This document shows positions 8,267 to 64,000 of a stretch of 64,000 nucleotides of DNA, one piece after another. The stretch covers positions 22,506,001 to 22,570,000 of the forward strand of contig OX597840.1 in the NCBI GenBank assembly GCA_951406725.2. Direction: 5' to 3'. Below the pieces are notes generated by a model. It was not told where the DNA came from, ran no database searches, and worked only from the letters and a program-made list of their open reading frames with translations. The stretch's first letter is position 1. Each line of letters opens with the position of its first letter. The stretch is from Octopus vulgaris (Eukaryota). Both the position numbers and the translations under genes were made by a program.

Positions 8267-8304
8267 CTTGTGTATGTGTCACCTCTTCATTATTCTACAA
8301 AATA

Positions 8305-8528
8305 CCTTGTAGAGTTACATCCCTTGCATATTATAATTGAATAACATTACTAACATAATTATATGCTAGGGAAATAACTCTAGAATGCATATTGTAGTTA
8401 ACTATATAATTAAGATATAACTACAAATTATATTCTTCAGTTAGTTCCCTTGCATATTTATTATTGTTATTAAATTATATGCAAGGGAAGTAACTCTAGA
8501 TATATTTTGTCGTTATCTCCCCTAAATA
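8305..8528. repeat. Imperfect fold-back (inverted) repeats built on AGTTAYNTCCCTTG / CAAGGGAAGTAACT
   Basis: tagagttacatcccttgcata ... tatgctagggaaataactcta, and agttcccttgcatat ... atatgcaagggaagt. Paralogous blocks lie near 38.95, 41.28, 43.56, 48.59 and 50.45 kb. Confidence 0.6.
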
Positions 8529-8924
8529 TGTAGTTCTCTTACAGGGTAAATGTTTTTAAATTTTCTCCTGGTTTACTGAATTAACTTTTATTTGCGGTTG
8601 AAGCTTTGGCTGTTATTTCTAGTGGGTGAATGGCCTATTATGGCCGTTCCTTTATTGTTGATGTTGAACTTAAAAATGGTCTATGACTATTTTAATTTTT
8701 TCCTACTAGGCCGCTGGTGGCAAAAGAATTCTACAAAATGTTTTTTGCCACCCTATATTGATTAATTATGAATTTTCTGGTTAATTCCGTAATGGAATCG
8801 ACGGCTTATATTTATTTGCTGCCGATAAATTTGGCGCGAGTGCGACGATTTGAAAATTTTAGGTCAGATATTAACTTGGCAACGTCGGAAATGCCTCGTG
8901 AAAATATCTGTTCCGTCTTGGGCT

Positions 8925-9031
8925 ATTTCTTACTGATGAATCTGAGAGCCTGTGGAAGATTGGCTTGATTTAATTTAATCAGGTTAGTTTACCATTAATC
9001 AGCAGATGAAACGGTATATCGTATAAGAAAT
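8925..9031 (+). ncRNA. Type I hammerhead ribozyme, copy 1
   Basis: Stem I ATTTCTTA (8925-32) / TAAGAAAT (9024-31). CTGATGA at 8933-39. Stem II ATCTG (8940-44) / CAGAT (9003-07) with a long insert. GAAA at 9008-11. Stem III A-CGG-TATA-TCG-T. GUA cleavage triplet at 9021-23. Confidence 0.9.
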
Positions 9032-9416
9032 TACAGGGTAAATGTTTTAAAATTTTCTCCTGGTTTACTGAATTAACTTTTATTTGCGGTTGAAGCTTTG
9101 GCTGTTATTTCTAGTGGGTGAATGGCCTATTATGGCCGTTCCTTTATTGTTGATGTTGAACTTAAAAATGGTCTATGACTATTTTAATTTTTTCCTACTA
9201 GGCCGCTGGTGGCAAAAGAATTCTACAAAATTTTTTTTGCCACCCTATATTGATTAATTATGAATTTTCTGGTTAATTCCGTAATGGAATCGACGGCTTA
9301 TATTTATTTGCTGCCGATAAATTTGGCGCGAGTGCGACGATTTGAAAATTTTAGGTCAGATATTAACTTGGCAACGTCGGAAATGCCTCGTGAAAATATC
9401 TGTTCCGTCTTGGGCT

Positions 9417-9523
9417 ATTTCTTACTGATGAATCTGAGAGCCTGTGGAAGATTGGCTTGATTTAATTTAATCAGGTTAGTTTACCATTAATCAGCAGATG
9501 AAACGGTATATCGTATAAGAAAT
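9417..9523 (+). ncRNA. Type I hammerhead ribozyme, copy 2
   Basis: Same sequence as 8925-9031, offset by +492. Confidence 0.9.
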
Positions 9524-9908
9524 TACAGGGTAAATGTTTTAAAATTTTCTCCTGGTTTACTGAATTAACTTTTATTTGCGGTTGAAGCTTTGGCTGTTAT
9601 TTCTAGTGGGTGAATGGCCTATTATGGCCGTTCCTTTATTGTTGATGTTGAACTTAAAAATGGTCTATGACTATTTTAATTTTTTCCTACTAGGCCGCTG
9701 GTGGCAAAAGAATTCTACAAAATGTTTTTTGCCACCCTATATTGATTAATTATGAATTTTCTGGTTAATTCCGTAATGGAATCGACGGCTTATATTTATT
9801 TGCTGCCGATAAATTTGGCGCGAGTGCGACGATTTGAAAATTTTAGGTCAGATATTAACTTGGCAACGTCGGAAATGCCTCGTGAAAATATCTGTTCCGT
9901 CTTGGGCT

Positions 9909-10015
9909 ATTTCTTACTGATGAATCTGAGAGCCTGTGGAAGATTGGCTTGATTTAATTTAATCAGGTTAGTTTACCATTAATCAGCAGATGAAACGGTA
10001 TATCGTATAAGAAAT
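9909..10015 (+). ncRNA. Type I hammerhead ribozyme, copy 3
   Basis: Same sequence as 8925-9031, offset by +984. Confidence 0.9.
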
Positions 10016-10171
10016 TACAGGGTAAATGTTTTTAAATTTTCTCCTGGTTTACTGAATTAACTTTTATTTGCGGTTGAAGCTTTGGCTGTTATTTCTAGTG
10101 GGTGAATGGCCTATTATGGCCGTTCCTTTATTGTTGTAGTTCTCTTAATATATACTTTGTCGCTCTATTAC

Positions 10172-37999: not shown

Positions 38000-44060
<6,061 letters not shown>

Positions 44061-47106: not shown

Positions 47107-48058
47107 ACAAACAAGCCTCGTTCACACATGCGTCTATACAAACAAGCCTCGTTCACCCGTCATGCGTCCATACAAACAATCCTTGTTCATCGTCATGCGT
47201 CCATACAAACAATCCTCGTTCACCCGTAATGCGTCCATACAAACAAGCCTCGTTCACACGTCATGCGTCTATACAAACGAGCCTCGTTCACACATGCGTC
47301 CATACAAACAAGCCTCGTTAACACATCATGCGTCCATACAAAAAGCCTCGTTCACCCGTCATGCGTCCATACAAACAAGCCTCGTTCACCCGTCATGCGT
47401 CCATACAAAGAAGCATCGTTCACTGTCATGCGTCCATACAAACAAGCCTCGTTCACCCGTCATGCGTCCATTCAAACAAGCCTCGTTCACACGTCATGCG
47501 TCCATACAAACAAGCCTCGTTTACACGTCATGCGTCCATACAAAAAGCCTCGTTCACCTCGTTCACACAAGCCTCGTCATGCGTCTATACAAACAAGCCT
47601 CGTTCACCCGTCATGCGTCTATACAAACAAGCCTCGTTCACCCGTCATGCGTCTATACAAACAAGCCTCGTTCACCCGTCATGCGTCTATACAAACAAGC
47701 CTCGTTCACCCGTCATGCGTCCATACAAACAATCCTCGTTCATCCGTCATGCGTCCATACAAACAATCCTCGTTCACCCGTAATGTGTCCATACAAACAA
47801 GCCTCGTTCACCCGTCATGCGTCTATACAAACAAGCCTCGTTCACACATCATGCGTCAATACAAACAAGCCTCGTTCACACATGCGTCCATACAAACAAG
47901 CCTCGTTCACACATCATTCGTCCATACAAATATGCCTAGTTCACATCATGCGTCCATACAAACAAGCCTCGTTCACACATCATTCGTCCATACAAACAAG
48001 CTTCGTTCACACATCATGCGTTTATACACACAAGCCTCGTTCACACATGCGTCCATAC
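47107..48058. repeat. 34-bp minisatellite (ACAAACAAGCCTCGTTCACCCGTCATGCGTCCAT), ~28 copies
   Basis: Directly visible tandem units. Confidence 0.95.
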
Positions 48059-48073
48059 ATAGATTTTCATACA

Positions 48074-48502: not shown

Positions 48503-49316
48503 ATGGCCATAATGGGACATCCGACTCACTAGAGAGAGCAGTTAAACTCCAAAAAATCGTAAAAGTGTGTCATATCTGAATAATATAATTGAGAGTTACT
48601 TCCCTCGCATATTATAATTTAACGAAAGTAATTAAATTACATTTACGGAAAGTAACTCTGGAAGATGTTATCTAGTTATCTCCCTTCCGAGAGTTAATTT
48701 CCTAAAATATAATTTTATTATTGTTAAAATATAATATTCAAGGGAAGTAACTGTTAGAAGATACTGTGTAGTTATCTCCCTTAAGTATGTAGTTATCGTA
48801 ATATACACTTTGTCGCTCTTAGACTCTTTCAGTTAATTCACTGTGACCATGGTGGAGCACCGCCTTTAGTGAAGCAAATCAACCACAGGAATTATTATTT
48901 GTAAGCCTATTACTTAATGTATAGGTCTCTTTTGCAGAACCGATAAGTTACTGCGTTTTCATTTCTGTGTGTGTTTGTGCGTATGTGAGTGTGTGAGAGT
49001 TTGGATGTGTAACTGTGTCTTTTTCGTTGCTATGTGTGTTGTGTGTGTTTGTGCGTGTGTAGGTATGTAACTGTTTTCATTTCAGTGTTTGTGTATGTGT
49101 GAATGATTTTATTTCTGTGTGTAAGTGTGTGTGAGCCTCTGTGTGTTTGTATTCGTTTGTGTGTGTGCGACAATTACAGCTACAACAAACACTTTAAGCA
49201 TCTCTAAGATACCCACATTTGTATATCCCTAATTTCTAAATGAAAAGAAGTTCAATTTATTGCACCTTTAGCGACTTCAGATTTGCGAGTGTTAAGCACC
49301 CCGTATATACATACCT

Positions 49317-49739: not shown

Positions 49740-51907
49740 CACATACAGATATACGTATATATACCCACACACGCATATATATATAATCTAAAACAAAAAT
49801 GAAACTTGATTATGTCCGAAGAGTAGTACTAGATAACATTATTACTTTATATATTTGTGGGGTGTAGTGAAATGTAAATGATCAGCTGGTCAATATTTAT
49901 TTGACGTGTGGGTGTTTGTGCGTGTGTGAGGACAGTCCACCCATACCCAAGATTGTTGCGTTGTCTTATGGGACCCAGCCGCGAAACTTCCGGACCCCAT
50001 TAATGAACTCATTTGCATATCAACAATTAGGGCTCACATTGAAGTTGTCCGGTTAACAAACAGTAGTGTCTGAATGGGAATTAGCTTGCTTACCTAACAA
50101 TTACTTCCGAGTTCAGTCCCACTGAGTGGCACGTTAGGCAAATGTCTTCTACTAGCATATAGGCTCGAGGCGATAATAACTGTCTCGAGTCTATATGATA
50201 TTACTTTTCCAAATCCACCACTTTCGCGTGGTTTTCTCAGCAGTAAATATAAACCAGATAGATATTTATATATATGTTTCTGTGTCCCCAAAACCGCTTG
50301 ACAACCGATGCTGGTCTTTTTACACTCCAGTAACTTCGGGAAAAGACGACCAATAAATAATATTCTAGGCTGTCATAGAGTAAGTCCTAGTGTCGATTTG
50401 CTCTAGAAAAGCGTTAAAGGGTGTGTGTCACGTCTGAATTATATATTCTAGAGCTATTTCTCTCGCATATTATAATTTAATAAAAGTAAAATAATTATAT
50501 GTAAGGAAAGTAACTCTGGAAGATGTTATCTAGTTATCTCCCTTCCGAGAGTTAATATCCTAAAATATTTTATTGTTAAAATATAATATTCAAGGGAAGT
50601 AACTGTAGAAGATACTCTGTAGTTATCTCCCTTAAGTATGTAGTTATCGTAATATACGCTTTGTCGCTCTTATACTCTTTCAGTTATTTCACTGTGACCA
50701 TGGTGGAGCACCGCCTTTAGTCAAGCAAATCAACCCCAGCAATTATTCTTTGTATGCCTATTACTTCACGTATAGGTCTCTTTTGCAGAACCGATAAGTT
50801 ACGGGGACGTAATGTTCGATGTACTGATTTAGTAGGTATTTATTTATTGTAAGAACTTCAATTATTATAAATTATGTGCTAGGAAAAATACTAGAAACTT
50901 TTTTGACAGACCTATTGGGGCTCCTTGTGTGTGTGGGACTGTTTTTATTTATGTGAGTATGGGTATTTTCATTTCAGTGGTTGTTTGTGTGTGTGTGAGA
51001 GTGTTTTTATTTCTGTGTGCGCGAGTGTGTGAGCGACTGAGTGTTTCTATTTGTTTGTGTGTGTGCGACACTTACAAATGCAACAAGCACTTTGACCATT
51101 TCTAAGATACCCACATTTGAGATCACTAACTACTAAATCAAAATAAGTTCAATTTATTGCACCTTTAGTGACTTCAGATGTTGCTCATATTTTCCCCATG
51201 TGTCGACAATGTATTAATTTCACAAGTGGATAAAAGAAATTCTCATACTGGCGTGGAGGGGGCTGATATTCTAACTGCGAGTTCAATGCACCCAATGCCC
51301 CTTTACATTCTGAATAACTTGTATGTTTGTGCTAGTTAGGGTTAGGGTTTATGTGTGAGTGTGTAACTGTGTTTTCATTTCTGTGTGTGGGTGCTTATGT
51401 TTGTGTGTATGTGTGTTTGTGCGTATGTTAGTGTGTTAGAGTTTGGATGTGTTACCGTATTTTCCATTTGTATTTGTGTGTGTCTGTGTTTGTGCATGTG
51501 TAGGTATGTAACTGTTTTCATTTCTGTGTTTGTCCGCGTGTTTGAGTGTGTGAATATGTATCTGTATTTTTATTTTTTGTGCGTATGTGAGTGTTTTTGT
51601 GAGAATTTTTTTTTCAGTGTTTGTGTGCGTGGGACTTTTTATATGTGTGTGTGTGTTGCTATCTTCATTTCAGTGTCTGTGTTTGTGTGAATGTTTTTAT
51701 TTTTGTGTGTACGTGTGTGTGAGCGACTGTGTTTTTATTCGTTTGTTTGTGCGACGATTACAGCTACAGCAGACACCTTAAGCATCTCCAAGATACCCAC
51801 ATTTGCAGATCCCTAAGTTCTAAATGAAAAGAAGTTCAATTTATTGCACCTTTAGCGACTTCAGATTTGCGAGTGTTAAGCAGCCAATGCCTCCCGTATC
51901 TACATAC

Positions 51908-52869: not shown

Positions 52870-53302
52870 GCCTCGTTCACCCATCATGCGTCCATACAAA
52901 CATGCCTCGTTCACACATCATGCGTCCATACAAACATGCCTCGTTCACACATCATGCGTCCATACAAACAAGCCTCTTTCACACATGCGTCCATACAAAC
53001 AAGCCACGTTCACACATCATGCGCCCACTCATACACACCTCGTTCACACATCATGCGTCCATTCAAACAAGCCTCGTTCACACATCATGCGTCCAAACAA
53101 CCAAGCCTCGTTCACACATCATGCGTTCATACAAACAAGCCTCGTTCACACATCATGCGTCCATACAAATATGCCTCGTTCACATATCTTGCGTCCATAC
53201 AAACAAGCCTCGTTCACACATCATGCGTCCATACAAACAAGCCTCGTTCACACATCATGCGTCCATACACACAAGCCTCGTCCACACATCATGCGTCCAT
53301 AC
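52870..53302. repeat. 34-bp minisatellite, second array (~13 copies)
   Basis: acaaacaagcctcgttcacacatcatgcgtccat units. Confidence 0.95.
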
Positions 53303-53317
53303 ATAGATATTCATACA

Positions 53318-56300
53318 TTCAGGGACATGTAATTCAGGGACAGGTAATTCAGGGGCAGGTAATTCAAGGCAGGTAATCCAGGCGCAGGAAATTCAGGGGC
53401 AGGTAATCCAGGTGCATGTATTTCAGGGACAGGTAATTCAGGGGCATGTAATTAAGGGGCAGGAAATTCAGGGACATGTAATTCAGGGCCATGTAATTCA
53501 CGGGCAGGTAATTGAGGGGCATGTAATTCAGGGGTATGTAATTCAGGGTCAGGTTATTCAGGTGTAGGTTATTCAGGGGCAGGTAATCCAGGGTTAAGTA
53601 ATTAAGGGGCATGTAATTCAGGGGCATGTAATTCAGAGCAAGGTAATTCAGAGGCAGTTAATTGAGGGGCATGTAATTCAGGGGCAGGTAATTCAGGTTT
53701 ATGTAATCCAGGTGCAGGTAATTCAGGGGAATGTAATTCAGGTGCATGTAATTCAGGGGCATGTAATTGAGGTGCAGGTAATTGAGGGGCATATAATTCA
53801 GGTGTATGTAATTCAGGGGAATGTAATTCAGGGGAATGTAATTTAGGGGAAGGTAATTCAGGGGTAATTCAGGGACAGGTAATTTAAAGGAATGTCATTC
53901 ATGGGCAGGTAATTCAGGGTTAGGTAATCCAGGGTATGTAATTCAGGGGCAATTAATTCAGATGAAAGGTAATTCAGGGGCAGGTAATCTAGGTGCAGGT
54001 AATTTAGGGATAGATAATTCAGAGGCATGTCATTCAGGTGCATGTAATTAAGAGGCATGTAATTGAGGGCCATGTAATTCAGGTGTTTGCAATTCAGGGG
54101 CAGGTAATTCAGATGCCTGTAATTTAGGGGCAGGTACTTCAGGGGTATGTAATTCAGGGGCAGGTAATTCAGGTGTATGTTATTCAGGGGCATGTAATTA
54201 AAGGGCGGGCAGGTAATTGAGGGGCATGTCATTCAGGGGCATGTAATTTAGGGGCAGGTAATTCACGGGCATGTAATTCAGGTGTATGTGATTCATTGGC
54301 AGGTAATTCATTGGCATGTAATTTAGGGGCAGGTAATTCACGAGCATGTAATTCAGGTGTATGTAATTCAGGGGCAGGTAATTCAGGTGCAGGTTATTCA
54401 GGGACTCAGGGGCATGTAATTGAGGGGAAGGTAATCCAGGTGCAGGTGATTTAGAGGAATGTCATTCATTGGCAGGTAATTCAGGGGCAGGTAATTCAGA
54501 GGAATGTAATTCAGGGGCATGTAATTCAGGGGCATGTAATTCAGATGAAAGGTAATTCAGGGGCAGGTAATTTATAGGAATGTCATTCATGGGCAGGTAA
54601 TTCAGGGTTAGGTAATTCAGGGGCAGGTAATTTAGGGGCATGTCATTCACGGGCAGGTAATTTAGGGATAGATAATTCAGAGGCAGGTCATTCAGGTGCA
54701 TGTAATTAAGAGGCATGTAATTGAGGGGCAGGTAATTCAGGTGTTTGTAATTCAGGGGCAGGTAATTCAGGGGAAGGTAATTCAGGGTCAGGTTATTTAG
54801 GGTTAGGTTATTCAGGGGCAGGTAATTCAGATGTATGTTATTCAGGGGAAGGTAATTCAGGGGCAGGTAATTCAGGGGCATGTAATTAAGGGGCAGGTAG
54901 TTCAGGGGCATGTAATTCATGGGCAGGTAATTGAGGGGCATGTAATTCAGGGGCATGTAATTGAGGTGCAGGTATTTGAGGGGCATGTAATTCAGGTGTA
55001 TGTAATTCAGGGGCATGTAATTCATGGGTGGGTAATTCAGAGGAATGTAATTCAGGGAAGGTAATTTAGAGGATTGTCATTCAGGGGCAGGTAATTCTGG
55101 GTAAGGAAATCCAGGGGCATGTAATTCAGGGGTAATTCAGGGACAGGTAATTTAGAGGAATGTCATTCATGGGCAGGTTATTCAGGGGCAGGTAATTCAG
55201 GGGCAGGTAATTCAGGGGCAGGTAATTCAGATGTATGTTATTCAGGGGAAGGTAATTCAGGGGCAGGTAATCCAGGGGATGTAATTAAGGGGCAGGTAGT
55301 TCAGGGGCATGTAATTCATGGGCAGGTAATTTAGGGGCATGTAATTCAGGGGCATGTAATTGAGGTGCAGGTAATTGAGGGGCATGTAATTCAGGTGTAT
55401 GTAATTCAGGGGCATGTAATTCATGGGTGGGTAATTCAGAGGAATGTAATTCAGGGAAGGTAATTTAGAGGATTGTCATTCAGGGGCAGGTAATTCTGGG
55501 TTAGGAAATCCAGGGGCATGTAATTCAGGGGCATGTAATTCAGGGGCAGGTAATTCAGGGGATGGTAATTTAGGGATAGGTAATTCAGGGCCATGTCATT
55601 CAGGGGAAGGTAATTGAGGGTCAGGTTATTCAGGTGTAGGTTATTCAGGGGCAGGTAATCCAGGGTTAAGTAATTAAGGGGTATGTAATTCAGAGCAAGG
55701 TAATTCAGTGGCAGGTAATTGAGGGGCATGTAATTCAGGTGCAGTTAATTCAGGTTTATGTAATCCAGGTGCAGGTAATTCAGGGGAATGTAATTCAGGT
55801 GCATGTAATTAAGGGGCATGTAATTCAGGTGTATGTAATTGAGGTGCATGTAATTCAGGGGTAGGTAATTAAGGGGCACGTAATTCAGGGGCATGTAATT
55901 CATGGGTGGGTAATTCAGAGGAATGTAATTCAGGGGCATGTAATTCAGGGGTAATTCAGGGAAGGTAATTTAGAGGATTGTCATTCAGGGGCAGGTAATT
56001 CAGGGTTAGGTAATCCAGGGGAAGGTAATTCAGGGACAGGTAATTTAGAGGAATGTCATTCATAGGCAGGTAATTCAGGGGCAGGTAATTCAGGGGTATG
56101 TAATTCAGTGGATTGTAATTCAGAGAAAATGTTATTCAGGGGCAGGTAATCTAGGTGCAGGTAATTCAAGGGCAGGTCGTTCAGGTGCTTGTAATTAAGA
56201 GGCATCTAATTGAGGGCCATGTAATTCAGATGTTTGCAATTCAGCGGCAGGTAATTCAGATGCATGTAATTTAGGGGCAAGTACTTCAGGGGTATGTAAT

Positions 56301-59300
56301 TCAGGGGCAGGTAATTCAGATGTATGTAATTCAGGGGTAATTCAGGGGCAGGTAATTCAGGGGCATGTAATTAAGGGGAAGGTAGTTCAGGGGCATGTAA
56401 TTCATGGGCAGGTAATTGAAGGGCATGTAATTTAGGGGCAGGTAATTCACGGGCATGTAATTCAGGTGTATGTAATTCTTGGGCAGGTAATTGAGGGGCA
56501 GATAGTTCAGGGGCAGGTAATTCAGGTGTATGTAATTCAGGTGCATGTAATTCATGGGCAGGTAATTCAGGGGTATGTAATTCAGGGACATGTCATTCAG
56601 GGAAGGTAATTCAGGGGCATGTAATTCAGGGGCATGTAATTCATGGGCGGGTAATTGAGGGGAAGGTAATCCAGGTGCAGGTGATTTAGAGTAATGTCAT
56701 TCATTGGCAGGTAATTCAGGGGCAGGTATTCAGAGGAATGTAATTCAGTGGCATGTAATTCAGGGGAAGGTAATTAAGGGACAGGTAATTTATAGGAATG
56801 TTATTCATGGGCAGGTAATTCAGGGGCAGGTAATTCAGGGGTATGTAATTCAGGGGCATGTAATTCAGATGAAAGGTAATTCAGGGGCATGTCAATCACG
56901 GGCAGGTAATTTAGGGATAGATAATTCAGAGGCAGGTAATTCAGGTGTTTGCAATTCAGGGGCGGGTAATTCAGATGCATGTTATTTAGGGGCAGGTAAT
57001 TCAGGGGCAGGTACTTCAGGGGTATGTAATTCAGGGCAGGTAATTCAGGGGTATGTAATTCAGGGCAGGTAATTCAGGGGAAGGTAATTCAGATGTATGT
57101 TATTCAGGGGAAGGTAATTCAGGGGCAGGTAATCCAGGGGCATGTAATTCAGGGGCAGGTAATCCAGGGGCATGTAGTTCAGGGGCAGGTAGTTCAGGGG
57201 CATGTAATTCATGGGCAGGTAATTGAGGGGCATGTCATTCAGGGGAATGTAATTTAGGGGCAGGTAATTCACGGGCAGGTAATTCACGGGCATGTAATTC
57301 AGGGGTATGTAATTTATGGGCAGCTAATTCAGGGGTATGTAATTCAGGGGAATGTCATTCAGGGGCAGGTAATTCGGGCATGTAATTCATGTGCGGGTAA
57401 TTGAGGGGAAGGTAATCCAGGTGCAGGTGATTTAGAGTAATGTCATTCATTGGCAGGTAATTCAGGGGCTTGTAATACAGAGCAATGTAATTCAGGGGAA
57501 GGTAATCCAGGGGGGGAGGTAATTTATAGGAATGTCATTCATGAGCAGGTAATTCAGGGTCTTGTAATTCAGGGGCATGTAATTGAGGTGCAGGTAATTG
57601 AGGGGCTTGTAATCCAGGTGTATGTAATTCAGGGGCATGTAATTCGTGGGTGGGTAATTCAGAGGAATGTAATTCGGGGGAAGGTAATCCAGGGGCAGGT
57701 AATTCAGGGACAGGTAATTTAGAAGAATGTCAATTCATGGGCAGGTAATCCAGGGGCATGTAATTCAGGGGCAGGTAATCGAGGTGCATGTAATTTAGGG
57801 GCATGTAATTCACGGGCAGGTAATTCAGGGGCTGGTGATTTAGGGATAGATAATTCAGAGGCATGTCATTCAGGGGCAGGTCATTCAGGTGCATGTAATT
57901 AAGAGACAGGTAATTCAGGGCCATGTAATTCAGGTGCTTGTAATTTAGGGGCAGGTACTTCAGGGGAAGGTAATTTAGGGGCATTTAATTCATGGGCAGG
58001 TAATTGAGGGGCATGTCATTCAGGGGCATGTAATTCACGGGCAGGTAATTCACGGGCATGTAATTCAAGTGTATATAATTCAGGGGCAGGTAATTCAGGT
58101 GCAGGTTATTCAGGGACTCAGGGGTAGATACTTCAGGGGCATGTAATTCTGGGGCAGGTAATTCAGGGGCATGTTATTCAGGGGCATGTCATTCAGGGAA
58201 GGTAATTCAGGGGCAGGTAATTCAGGGTTAGGTAATTCAGCGGCATGTAATTGAGGTGCAGGTAATTCAGGTGTCTGTAATTCAGGGGTAGGTAATTCAG
58301 GGGCATGTAATTCAGGGGCATGTAATTCGTGGGTGGGTAATTCAGAGGAATGTAATTCAGGGGAAGGTAATCCAGGGGCAGGTAATTCAGGGGTAATTCA
58401 GGGACAGGTAACTTAGAGGAATGTCATTCATCTGCAGGTAATTTAGGGGCAGGTAATCCAGGGGCATGTAATTCAGATGAAAGGTAATTCAGGGCATGTC
58501 ATTCACGGGCAGGTAATTCAGGGGCTGGTAATTTAGGGATAGATAATTCAGAGGCATGTCATTCAGGGGCAGGTCATTCAGGGTCATGTAATTTAGGGGC
58601 AGGTAATTCATGGCCATTTAATTCATGGGCAGGTAATTGGGGGGGCAGGTAATATATGGGCAGGTAATTGAGGGGCATGTCATTCAGGGGCAGGTAATTT
58701 AGGGGCAGGTAATTCAGGTGTATGTAATTCAGGGGCAGGTTATTCAGGGACTCAGGGGTAGATAATTCAGGGGCATGTAATTCAGGTGTATGTAATTCAG
58801 GGGCATGTAAATCAGTTGCATGTAATTGAGGGGCATGTAATTGAGGGGCATGTAATTCAGGTGTATGTTATTCAGGGGCAGGTTATTCAGGTATAGGTTA
58901 TTCAGGGGCAGGTAATCCAGGGGTAACTAATTAAGGGGCAGGTCATTCAGGGGCATGAAATTTAGGGGCTGGTAATTCACGGGCAGGTAATTCACGGGCA
59001 TGTAATTTATGGGAAGGTAATTCAGGGGTATGTAATTCAGGGGCAGGTAAATCGGGCATGTAATTCATGTGCGGGTAATTGAGGGGAAGGTAATCCAGGT
59101 GCAGGTGATTTAGAGTAATGTCATTCATTGGCAGGTAATTCAGGGGCAGGTAATACAGAGCAATGTAATTTAGGGGAAGGTAATCCAGGGGGAGGTAATT
59201 TATAGGAATGTCATTCATGGGCAGGTAATTCAGGGTCTTGTAATTCAGGGGCATGTAATTGAGGGGCTCGTAATCCAGGTGTATGTAATTCAGGGGCATG

Positions 59301-62300
59301 TAATTCGTGGGTGGGTAATTCAGAGGAATGTAATTCGGGGGAAGGTAATTCAGGCGTAATTCAGGGACAGGTAATTTAGAGGAATGTCATTCATGGGCAG
59401 GTAATCCAGGGGCATGTAATTCAGGGGCAGGTAATCGAGGTGCATGTAATTCAGGGGCATGTCATTCACGGGCATGTAATTCAGGGGCTGGTAATTTAGG
59501 GATAGATAATTCAGAGGCATGAAATTCAGGGGCAGGTCATTCAGGTGCATGTAATTAAGAGGCAGGTAATTCAGGTGCTTGTAATTCAGGGGCACGTAAT
59601 TCAGATGCATGTAATTTAGGGGCAGGTACTTCAGGGGAAGGTAATTTAGGGGCATTTAATTCATGGGCAGGTAATTGAGGGGCATGTAATTTAGGGCCAG
59701 GTAGTTCACGGGCAGGTAATTGAGGGGCATATCATTCAGGGGCAGGTAATTCACGGGCATGTAATTTAGGGGCAGGTAATTCACGGGCATGTAATTTAGG
59801 GGCAGGTAATTCACGGGCAGGTAATTCACGGGCATGTAAATTCAGGGTATGTAATTCAGGGGCAGGTAATTCACGTGCAGGTTATTCAGGGACTCAGGGG
59901 TAGATACTTGAGGGGCATGTAATTCTGGGGCAGGTAATTCAGGGGCATGTAATTCAGGGGCATTTAATTCAGGTGCATGTAATTCATGGGCAGGTAATTC
60001 AGGGGCATGTAATTCAGGGGCATGTCATTCAGGGGCATGTCATTCAGGGAAGGTAATTCAGGGGCAGGTAATTCAGGGTTAGGTAATTCAGCGGCATGTA
60101 ATTCAGGTGTCTGTAATTCAGGGGCATGTAATTCGTGGGTGGGTAATTCAGAGGAATGTAATTCAGGAGCATGTAATTCAGGGGAAGGTAATCCAGGGGC
60201 AGGTAATTCAGGGGTAATTCTGGGACAGGTAACTTAGAGGAATGTCATTCACCTGCAGGTAATTTAGGGGCAGGTAATCCAGGGGCATGTAATTCAGAGG
60301 AAAGGTAATTCAGGGGCATGTCATTCACGGGCAGGTAATTCAGGGGCTGGTAATTTAGGGATAGATAATTCAGAGGCATGTCATTCAGGGGCAGGTCATT
60401 CAGGGTCATGTAATTTAGGGGCAGGTACTTCAGGGGCAGGTAATTCATGGGCAGGTAATTGAGGGGCAGGTAATTCAGGTGTATGTAATTCAGGTGCAGG
60501 TTATTCAGGGACTCAGGGGTAGATAATTCAGGGGAGTGTAATTCAGGTGTATGTAATTCAGGGGTATGTAATTCAGGTGCATGTAATTCATGGGCAGGTA
60601 ATTCAGGGGCAGGTAATTCAGGGGCATGTCATTCAGGGGCATGTCATTCAGGGGCATGTCATTCAGGGAAGGTAATTCAGGGCTAGGTAATTCAGGGGCA
60701 TGTAATTCAGGTGTATGTAATTCAGGGGCATGTCATTCACGGGTGGGTATTTTAGGGATAGGTAATTCAGGGGCACATCATTCAGAGTCAGATCATTCAT
60801 GTGCATGTAATTAAGAGTCATGTAATTTAGGGGCAGGTAATTCAGGGGAAGGTAATTCAGGGGTAATTCAGGGACAGGTAATTTAGAGGAATGTCATTCA
60901 TGGGCAGGTAATTCAGGGGCTTGTAATTCTGGGTTAGGTAATCCAGGGGCATGTAATTCAGGAGCATGTAATTCAGGGGCAGGTAATCTAGGTGCCGGTA
61001 ATTCAGGGGTATGTCAATCACGGGCAGGTAATTTAGGGATAGATAATTCAGGGGCAGGTCATTTAGGTGCATGTAATTGAGGGGCAAGGTAATTGAAGGC
61101 CATGTAATTCAGGGGCAGGTAAATCAGGGGCATGTAATTCTGGGGAAGGTAATTCAGGTGTATGTTATTCAGGGGCAGTTAATCCAGGGGTATGTCATTC
61201 ACTGGCAGGTAATTCAGGGGCAGGTAATTTAGGGATAGATAATTCAGGGGCATATCATTCAGGGTCAGATCATTCATGTGCATGTAATTAAGAGGCATGT
61301 AATTGAGGGGCAGGTAATTCAGGTGTTTGTAATTCAGGGGCAGGTAATTCAGATGCATGTAATTTAGAGGCAGGTAATTCAGGGGTATGTAATTCAGGGG
61401 CAGGTAATTTAGAGGTATGTCATTCATTGGCAGATAATTCAGGGACATGTAATTAAGGGGCAGGTAGTTCAGGGGCATGTAATTCATGGGCAGGTAATTG
61501 AGGGGCATGTCATTCAGGGGCATGTATTTTAGGGGCAGGTAATTCACGGGCAGGTAATTCACGGGCATGTAATTCAGGTGTATGTAATTCATGGGTAGGT
61601 AATTGAGGGGCATGTAATTTAGGGGCAGGTAATTCACGGGCATGTAATTCAGGGACTCAGGGGCTGATAATTCAGGTGTATGTAATTCAGGGGCATTTAA
61701 TTCAGGTGCACTTCATTCAGGGGCAGGTAATTCAGGGGCATGTAATTCGGGCATGTAATTCATGTGCGGGTAATTGAGGGGAAGGTAATCCAGGGGCAGG
61801 TAATTCAGGAGCAGGTGATTTAGAGGAATGTCATTCATTGGCAGGTAATTCAGGGGCAGGTAATTCAGAGGAAGGTAATTCAGGGGTAATTTAAGGACAG
61901 GTAATTTATAGGAATGTCATTCATGGGCAGGTAATTCAGGAGCTTGTAATTCAGGGTTAGGTAATCCAGGGGCAGGTAATTCAGGGGCATGTAATTCAGA
62001 TGAAATGTAATTCAGGGGCAGGTAATGTAGGTGCAGGTATTTCAGGGGTATGTCATTCACGGGCAGGTAATTCAGGGGCAGCTAATTTAGGGATAGATAA
62101 TTCAGAGACATGTCATTCAAGGGCAGGTCATTCAGGTGCATGTAATTAAGAGACATGTAATTGAGGGGCAGGTAATTCAGGGCATGTAATTCAGGTGTTT
62201 GTAATTCAGGGGCAGGTCATTCAGATGCATGTAATTTAGTGGCAGGTAATTCAGGGGCAGGTACTTCAGGGTTAAGTAATTAAGGGGCATGTCATTCAGG

Positions 62301-64000
62301 TTTATGTAATTCAGGTGCAGGTAATTCAGGGGCATGTAATTCAGGGGCATGGAAATGAGGTGCAGGTAATTGAGGGGCATGTAATTCAGATGTGTGTAAT
62401 TCAGGGGAAGGTAATTCAGGGGCATGTAATTCAAGGGCATGTAATTCGTTGGTGGGTAATTCAGAGCAATGTATTTCAGGGGCATGTAATTCAGGTGCAT
62501 GTAATTCAGGGGCATGTAATTGAGGTGCAGGTAATTGAGGGGCATGTAATTCAGGTGTATGTAATTCAGGGGTAGGTAATTCAGGGGCATGTAATTCGTT
62601 GGTGGGTAATTCAGAGCAATATATTTCAGGGGAAGGTAATTTAGGGGTAATTCAGGGACAGGTAATTTAGAGGAATGTCATTCATGGGCAGGTAATTTAG
62701 GGGCAGGTAATCGAGGGGCATGTAATTCAGGGGCATGTAATTCAGATGAAAGGTGATTCAGGGGCATGTAATTCAGATGAAAGGTGATTCAGGGGCAGGT
62801 AATCTAGGTGCAGGTAATTCAGAGGCATGTCATTCACGGGTAGGTAATTCAGGGGCCGGTAATTTAGGGATAGATAATTCAGAGGCATGTCATTCAGGGC
62901 AGGTCATTCAGGTGCATGTAAATAAGAGGCAGGTAATTCAGGGCCATGTATTTCAGGTGTTTGTAATTCAGGGGCAGGTAATTCAGATGCATGTAATTTA
63001 GGGGCAGGTACTTCAGGGGTATATAATTCAGGGGCAGGTAATTGAGGGGAAGTTAATTCAGGTGTATGTTATTCAGGGGCAGGTAATTCATGGCCAGGTA
63101 ATTGAGGGGCATGTAATTTAGGGGCAGTAATTCACGGGCAAGTAATTCACGGGCATGTAATTCAGGTGTATGTAATTCATGGGCAGGTAATTGAGGGGCA
63201 TGTCATTCAGGGGCACGTAATTCAGGCGCATGTAATTTTGGGGCAGGTAATTCACGGGCATGTAATTCAGGTGTATGTAATTCAGGGGCAGGTAATTCAG
63301 GTGCAGGTTATTCAGGGACTCAGGGGTAGATAATTCAGGGGCATGTAATTCAGGGTCAGGTAATTCAGGGACAGGTAATTCAGGGGCATGTAATTCATGG
63401 GCAGGTTATTCAGGGGCATGTAATTTAGGGGCAGGTAATTTAGAGGAATATTGGCAGATAATTCAAGGACATGTAATTAAGGGGCAGGTAGTTCAGGGGC
63501 ATGTAATTCATGGGCAGGTAATTTAGGGGCATGTAATTCATGGGAAGGTAATTGAGGCGAAGGTAATCCAGGGGCAGGTAGTTCAGGTGCAGGTGATTTA
63601 GAGGAATGTCATTCATTGGCAGGTAATTCAGGGGCAGGTAATTTAGAGTGTAATTCAGGGGAAGGTAATCCAGGGGCAGGTAATTCAGGGGTAATTCACG
63701 GAAAGGTAATTTATAGGGATGTTATTCATGGGCAGGTGATTGAGGGGCAGGTAGTTCAGGGGCAGGTAATTCAGAGGAGTGTAATTCAGGGGAAGGTAAT
63801 TCAGGGGTAATTCAGGGACAGGTAATTTATAGGAATGTCATTCATGGGCAGGTGATTGAGGGGCATGTCATTCAGGGACAGGTAATTCAGGGGCCCATAA
63901 TTTAGGGGCAGGTAATTCAAAGGCATGTAATTCAGGTGTATGTAATTCAGGGGCAGGTAATTCAGATGCAGGTTATTCAGGGACATGTGACTCAGGGGCA
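53318..64000. repeat. 15-bp satellite GTAATTCAGGGGCA(T/G), >10.6 kb, continuing past the window end
   Basis: Uninterrupted divergent 15-mer array with occasional 10- and 14-bp units. Confidence 0.97.

Follow-up and report, generated by a model that had tools for sequence, protein, structure and literature searches.

A 492-nt hammerhead retrozyme family of Octopus vulgaris with two fixed 3' ends and a likely Penelope-like mode of insertion

The insertion in the window and its repeat unit

We analysed a 64,000-nt stretch of the Octopus vulgaris genome (hereafter the window; OX597840.1, positions 22,506,001 to 22,570,000), which lies mid-contig on contig C27 of a 2.8-Gb assembly. Near its left end are 3.25 tandem units of 492 nt, which differ from each other at only 2 positions (Table 1). 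These units are flanked by two copies of a 13-bp word, TGTAGTTCTCTTA, which occurs exactly twice in the window. The last 3 nt of the left copy (TTA, unit +8..+10) and the first 2 nt of the right copy (TG, +128..+129) also match the element, so the target-site duplication is 8–13 bp long, the 5' end of the element is at +8 to +11, and its 3' end is at +127 to +129. (Unit positions are counted from +1 = window 9024, the first base past the predicted ribozyme cut at 9023/9024.) The sequence-only reading had proposed a duplication at both ends of the insert and a 5' end 8–11 nt past the cut, and both proposals agree with our measurements.

Table 1. Positions of the insertion, its predicted ribozymes and 3' end sites, and the empty paralogous sites in the window.
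Feature	Positions	Strand	Details
Target-site duplication, left copy	8529..8541	+	last 3 nt also match the element
Insert, single arm, 3.25 units of 492 nt	8542..10134	+	unit +8/+11 to +127/+129; no ORF >68 aa, no tRNA
Type I hammerhead 1 (predicted)	8925..9031	+	8-bp stem I, CUGAUGA at 8933-39, long stem II, GAAA, 4-bp stem III; predicted cut after 9023
Site B, internal in the window copy	9208..9261	+	hairpin at unit +185..+221, then fixed 3' end +233..+238; also found one unit to either side
Type I hammerhead 2 (predicted)	9417..9523	+	predicted cut after 9515
Type I hammerhead 3 (predicted)	9909..10015	+	predicted cut after 10007
Site A, the end used by the window copy	10104..10136	+	hairpin at unit +97..+118, then fixed 3' end +129/+131
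Target-site duplication, right copy	10135..10147	+	first 2 nt also match the element
Empty paralogous site	39122..39134	+	alignment across the site
Empty paralogous site	41462..41474	+	alignment across the site
Empty paralogous site	48788..48800	+	alignment across the site
Empty paralogous site	50639..50651	+	alignment across the site

As had been claimed, four paralogous blocks in the window lack the insert: each has a single copy of the word (with 11, 10, 11, and 11 of 13 letters identical, in the order of Table 1). The string that had been quoted for these blocks is exact at 39122 and 48788, but it is 2 letters off at 41462 and 1 letter off at 50639. Since the blocks are only ~76–85% alike to the flank of the insertion, they show the ancestral state and not an allele. 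Elsewhere in the assembly, the best match to the flank is 85% identical (40 of 123 candidates scored). We also looked for filled and empty sites in four DNA runs (X1, X3, X8, and X12; contigs were built from partial reads). X1 has the filled left junction with 0 differences. The empty joint was seen in X12 only, where a contig covers 8315–8528 with 3 differences (214 nt) and joins 10135 via 13 shared letters; this is a near-identical empty site, but the contig's depth is 1209, versus ~45 for the other joints of that run, so it may represent an amplified close paralog instead of the allele.

The host block (window 8297–8530 and its paralogs) is itself a repeat family, whose copies are often near contig ends (on C3, C4, C5, C6, C10, C12, C13, C20, C22, and C24, with 40 of 123 candidates scored). 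The left flank (8297–8510) is an imperfect inverted repeat that ends ~20 nt before the insertion site. Farther away, a 15-bp satellite with ~720 copies (53317–64000) runs off the end of the window, and 34-bp arrays (47107–48059 and 52870–53303) adjoin it.

Each unit contains one type I hammerhead motif, with the predicted cut following GUA. For hammerhead 1, the constrained fold has an energy of -28.0 kcal/mol, versus -29.9 for the free fold, so it lies 1.9 kcal/mol above the minimum; the 492-nt unit folds better than all 100 of 100 shuffles (z = -5.2). Across the family, the free core position N7 has four alleles (50 of 267 differ), and the remaining core positions differ in 6 of 3365 cases versus 819 of 139278 elsewhere, although our search for core matches in part selected for the 3' half of the core. 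One pair in stem II is either G-C or A-U (21 loci), which is probably a single inherited change. A search of Rfam at the gathering score gave no match for the unit, and below it there was a weak match to Hammerhead_3 (type III; E = 0.0018). So we also considered a type III fold with a cut near +386. It has a weak stem I, its U is an A in 31 units, and only 2 ends fall within the 4704 nt at risk downstream of that cut, which leaves its cut site without genomic support; we therefore rejected this fold.

The unit has a GC content of ~0.35, and its longest stop-to-stop frame is 68 amino acids. Within the window's insert we found no protein and no LTR or tRNA part (a tRNA search found none), nor an ORF with a reverse transcriptase (RT) plus GIY-YIG, so this is not an autonomous Penelope-like element (PLE). 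Contigs that loop back over one unit were seen in two of four runs that are presumed to be RNA; a tandem transcript or DNA would give the same contigs, and neither ends nor strand can be read from them. We infer that the RNA cleaves itself and that circular RNA forms.

Fixed 3' ends and paired arms across the family

The assembly has 835 exact matches to the core (versus 2 for a control), and the family comprises several hundred or more young, dispersed, non-coding copies, with arrays of up to 9.3 units. Our first loci were 38 from the best DNA matches and 31 more from core matches on C1 and part of C2. To these we added whichever loci were still missing from the first 76 consecutive matches among 188 to the A end (see below); these 76 form a set which is unbiased for 5' ends. 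We dropped L039, which duplicates L038, and 118 loci were then classed by their 3' ends. A second sample has 47 of the 52 B-end matches on C1 (40 new and 7 already in the first set, two of these among the 76); it is mostly from a sister subfamily that is ~90% alike. Counts of ends exclude arms whose 3' end is neither A nor B, as well as one arm that ends in an N gap.

In nearly all arms, the 3' end is at +129–131 (site A) or at +233–238 (site B), nearly always in (TA)n. Both sites are preceded by a hairpin and by a similar word, C-T-W-T-A-T-T-G; the mapped start sites are 8–17 nt past the hairpin, and A and B are ~107 nt apart. Exact patterns of end plus TA were found 188 times for A, 429 times for the A of the sister subfamily, and 703 times for B, versus 0 for reversed controls.

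Most loci are two head-to-head arms, one ending at A and the other at B. The 118 loci divide into 84 AB, 1 AA, 0 BB, 22 A only, 4 B only, and 7 with an end elsewhere (three of which are fetch-edge or BLAST-split artefacts). The sole AA locus (L097) ends in a short piece of B, and several of the apparently single-arm loci conceal a B stub of 6–20 nt. If we consider only the 68 loci that were chosen on neither end, 49 of the 50 classed two-arm loci are AB (P = 5e-14 against a rate of 0.5). The second sample has 32 AB loci, 9 with B, 4 with B plus another end, and 2 that are truncated. This paired two-site, Penelope-type footprint was absent from the sequence-only reading, and it is a stronger finding than the cleavage-linked 5' ends described below.

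(TA)n flanks both sides of 94 of 116 loci, one side of 20, and neither side of 2. These last two are the window array and L031; each has a clean 13–15-bp duplication, and they have the haplotype 341T, 406T, 416A in common (n = 2 for both statements). Duplications are unreadable at most other loci because the target there is (TA)n: five of the 116 loci gave a match, and the three besides the window and L031 correspond to the 5% rate of the control. The window copy is thus atypical, as it is a single arm in a non-TA target, with neither an inverted arm nor a microsatellite. Since it nonetheless ends at A, a start at A does not need TA homology.

Where two arms meet, 42 of 80 clean joints have an overlap of 1–5 nt. 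In each of 15 short loci, the stretch +1..+131 was copied into both arms, which needs either displacement or two matched molecules. Two loci on different contigs and with different flanks (L117 and L120) have the identical arm-arm joint (+215/+215). A relative with 73% identity (L045:19–494) also has two inverted arms, which start at +12 and +31; this suggests that the two-arm pattern is old.

The window element is a real, recent retrozyme insertion and not a satellite amplified in place, as originally read from its sequence: besides the duplication and the empty sites, there are hundreds of dispersed copies that are ~99% alike and that have fixed 3' ends. Furthermore, we propose that the family is a non-LTR retrozyme with two fixed internal 3' ends and that, as its footprints make likely, it is copied in by a borrowed Penelope-like RT/GIY-YIG enzyme that primes at these sites.

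The predicted cut and the state of the template

The 5' ends of 43 of 132 arms lie at -3..+27 relative to the predicted cut, a zone that holds 6.7% of the bases at risk (P = 8e-19) and whose boundaries were drawn after we inspected the data. The ends are ~7-fold enriched just past the cut, with a sharp upstream edge: there are 0 ends at -19..-4 (unit 474–489; 2720 nt at risk), 5 in the 30 nt upstream of the zone, and 6 in the 30 nt downstream. The zone has 7.4 ends per 1000 nt, versus 2.7 in the best other 30-nt window. Counting one arm per locus, 26 of 75 ends are in the zone, as are 14 of 78 in the B-anchored sample (P = 5e-4). The two arms of a locus stop in the zone together above chance (13 of 57, odds ratio 11, P = 2e-4).

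On reaching its first cut, an arm stops there in 35 of 115 cases (~30%), which means that ~70% of arms continue past the first ribozyme on their path. At later cuts, the rate is 8 of 98 in the unbiased set (P = 0.016 versus ~3.3%) and 16 of 164 across all loci (P = 1e-4). We infer that about a quarter of the events used a template that began at the cut and that the rest read through. The sequence-only reading had called for a genome-wide plot of the ends and had named random 5' ends as the outcome that would count against it; the ends are not random relative to the cleavage site. Its claim that self-cleavage made the template's 5' end is borne out as an excess across the family, but two-thirds of the 5' ends lie outside the zone. 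The window copy passed three ribozymes before stopping at the fourth cut zone it met. Stops of this type occur at 8–10%, versus a background of ~3%, which puts the chance that cleavage made this end somewhat above even; so its 5' end (+8..+11) is probably the end of a cut template.

The variants within loci bear on the form of the template. Units differ by 0.34% within an arm, by 0.41% between the arms of a locus, and by 1.10% between loci. Minor alleles agree between the two arms of a locus in 68 of 81 comparisons (13 disagree), versus 647 of 10828 (6%) across loci. Most variants are either fixed across all units of a locus (75) or present in one unit (116), and 8 are partial. Where arms read from one unit into the next, 276 of 283 junctions are identical and 281 preserve length. 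Template jumping between linear monomers is not favoured, as the junctions are exact (although our pattern would miss large deletions). The haplotypes and junctions favour a monomer circle, though uniform multimers fit too. The window copy also carries two recurrent partial sites at the edges of homopolymers (T,A,A,T and G,T,G), the first of which varies in 14 loci; a single monomer circle explains these only by repeated error. In L064, L056, L138, and L066, locus-private variants recur without a period (for instance, in 5 of 8 units across both arms of L064). These could reflect a damaged or modified base that was read repeatedly on one RNA.

An alternative is that mobilisation is the same but the template is always linear, a partly cut multimeric transcript of a genomic array, with no circle. 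We consider this possible but unlikely. It would account for the excess of stops at later cuts and for the partial variants, including the window's T,A,A,T pattern, and multimeric RNAs are described in salamanders in the accessible text of PMC7229834. However, most variants occur either in a single unit or in every unit of the two arms, 6 fixed variants are private to one locus, and so are most of the partial variants that lie outside homopolymers. Also, the arrays, which reach 9.3 units, would shrink with each round without re-entry.

Could the pile-up of 5' ends arise without cleavage, from RT stalling at the folded stem I or from joining-prone, palindromic A/T words? The window end lies right at the base of the 8-bp stem I, and 25 of the 43 zone ends (+9..+27) are in palindromic A/T sequence that could itself favour joining, with TTTAAA-like overlaps and slippage fillers at the joints. 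But the other 18 (-3..+8) are inside stem I, with none in the 16 nt upstream, and no more than 2.7 ends per 1000 nt are seen at stronger hairpins or other A/T palindromes. Moreover, stops are rarer at later cuts (8%) than at the first (30%) although the structure is the same, and both arms stop together. Overall, this explanation seems improbable.

It is more doubtful still that a single unit inserted and afterwards multiplied at the site through unequal crossover, the satellite scenario raised in bioRxiv 10.64898/2026.07.22.740005. The tandem units are near-identical, and the partial variants could be conversion tracts. Against this, arms in opposite orientation have common haplotypes, the +1..+131 arms contain no repeat within them that could expand, one full unit or more is already present in 40 of 76 young loci, and the X12 site is empty instead of containing a single unit.

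Comparison with Penelope-like elements and the proposed mechanism

We propose that the retrozyme RNA would be transcribed and would then cleave itself. A Penelope-like enzyme would nick both strands of the target, and the two strands would prime on the same RNA, one from A and the other from B. With a cut linear monomer, both cDNAs would stop near +1, giving short two-arm copies that lack the ribozyme; with a circle or an uncut multimer, they would extend across several units before falling off or before the RNA is cut. The two cDNA ends would then join by short homology, and repair would fill in. At the window copy, only the A arm would have been kept and joined to the second nick 8–13 bp away, much like an ordinary target-primed insertion. 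With both starts internal, the ribozyme cannot be transmitted from a cut monomer, only by read-through.

More tentatively, a Penelope-like dimer might load one ribozyme RNA asymmetrically (at A and at B, 107 nt apart), prime opposite strands, roll both cDNAs round the same circle, and join them head to head without second-strand synthesis by the RT. Circularisation would then be obligatory for inheritance of the ribozyme, and about a thousand genomic copies would preserve, in their 5' ends, the in vivo mix of cut monomers (about a quarter) and read-through templates.

The least credible explanation is that a LINE enzyme mobilises the family, with inversions via L1-type twin priming: microsatellite-targeting LINEs exist, and the window copy alone (short duplication, 5' truncation) resembles an ordinary non-LTR insertion, but the family has no poly(A) or 3' repeat tail, has two fixed internal starts, has inverted arms as the rule, and has arms that overlap on the template in the 15 short loci, which arms from L1 twin priming are not known to do. 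As in L1 twin priming, both target strands would prime and the head-to-head joint is by short homology; unlike in L1, the second start does not vary in position and the stretches copied by the two arms overlap.

Several features of this Penelope-like proposal have precedents. According to the accessible text of PMC11167929, the Penelope-like protein of Poseidon from Anolis cleaves both strands, extends them, and initiates at two internal sites, which define the tail; the enzyme is predicted to be a dimer. PMC8557442, as far as its text is accessible, describes Neptune and Naiad as having an inverted arm and a 30–40-bp tail at one end and leaves the mechanism open. Tandem Penelope flanked by inverted repeats is described for D. 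virilis (PMC2377424, accessible part). Like these elements, the 492-nt family has two internal starts with a tail at one end only, an inverted and 5'-truncated arm, AT-rich or (TA)n targets, and start sites downstream of the hammerhead. Unlike them, it has no ORF, its unit is small enough for up to 9 rounds of copying, and its tail is ~107 nt instead of 30–40; the A–B distance, three times the PLE tail, counts against the Penelope-like reading. For Poseidon, the same text reports that ribozyme cleavage is not needed for insertion in vitro and was not seen in RNA reads, whereas the 492-nt family has a genomic footprint of cleavage.

The family also resembles the metazoan non-LTR retrozymes, as described in the accessible text of Cervera and de la Pena 2020 (PMC7229834), where retrozymes form circles and an RT of unknown origin makes tandem cDNA. 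Both consist of GC-poor, non-coding tandem units that each contain a type I hammerhead, both have a duplication of >4 bp when it is visible, and for both a circular intermediate and a PLE partner are proposed. The unit is 492 nt instead of ~300, although that range is descriptive and not defining. Li, Clavereau, and Pollet (bioRxiv 10.64898/2026.07.22.740005) address the PLE origin by phylogeny in the part of their text that is accessible. The words "inverted" and "octopus" do not occur in the accessible text of PMC7229834, nor do "cleavage site" and "target site" in that of the bioRxiv paper, and the accessible text of neither describes fixed 3' ends, inverted arms, or 5' ends at the cut, all of which are found in the 492-nt family. 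Our literature search, which covered the main texts of open papers, turned up no description of this family and no mapping of retrozyme ends.

The family is a new combination of known ingredients: a hammerhead retrozyme with a paired two-site Penelope footprint. How animal hammerhead repeats spread, and where the inverted arms and one-sided tails of PLEs come from, are called open in the accessible texts of PMC7229834, PMC8557442, and bioRxiv 10.64898/2026.07.22.740005. The 492-nt family links the two questions via insertion footprints rather than phylogeny. It shows a Penelope signature with a strict A/B rule and with arrays that are born at insertion, and its 5' ends are genomic evidence for self-cleaved RNA as a template. 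A 492-nt RNA with two mapped start sites would also be a small substrate for the existing in vitro assay.

The genome has two young autonomous Penelope-like families, whose proteins (781 and 775 amino acids) combine an RT with a GIY-YIG at the C terminus; the GIY-YIG scores above and RVT_1 just below the Pfam cut-offs. Both have the motif CxxxxCxxC, which the accessible text of PMC8557442 assigns to Neptune and Nematis. Copies of both autonomous families terminate in (TA)n at either a short or a long site, ~30–35 nt apart, and all 8 two-arm copies with both ends seen (L184, L186, L239, L254–256, L262, and L266) have one short and one long end, although several of these were picked for their opposite-strand ORFs. 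Neither family has a canonical hammerhead by a simple descriptor.

We searched for a partner by three routes (the GIY-YIG family, one PLE protein, and Rfam Hammerhead_1). No autonomous partner with retrozyme-related sequence turned up among 81 PLE-bearing loci or 6 Rfam hammerhead loci, and no pLTR sequence common to the retrozyme and a PLE was found in the fetched loci (150 of 6136 GIY-YIG candidates scored). As neither autonomous family has sequence in common with the retrozyme, the link to PLEs is by footprint only. The apparent neighbours at L110/L151, L242, and L257 are separate insertions that share TA tracts.

The two autonomous families (L179–L195 and L239–L269) are very young and (TA)n-targeted, and each has an upstream ORF and partial tandems with a period of 4.27 kb. 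For the second, we scored 76 near-identical copies. Finally, L271, L272, and L275 belong to a second, unrelated, and older hammerhead family; in L271, two inverted arms end at the same site, against the A/B rule of the 492-nt family.
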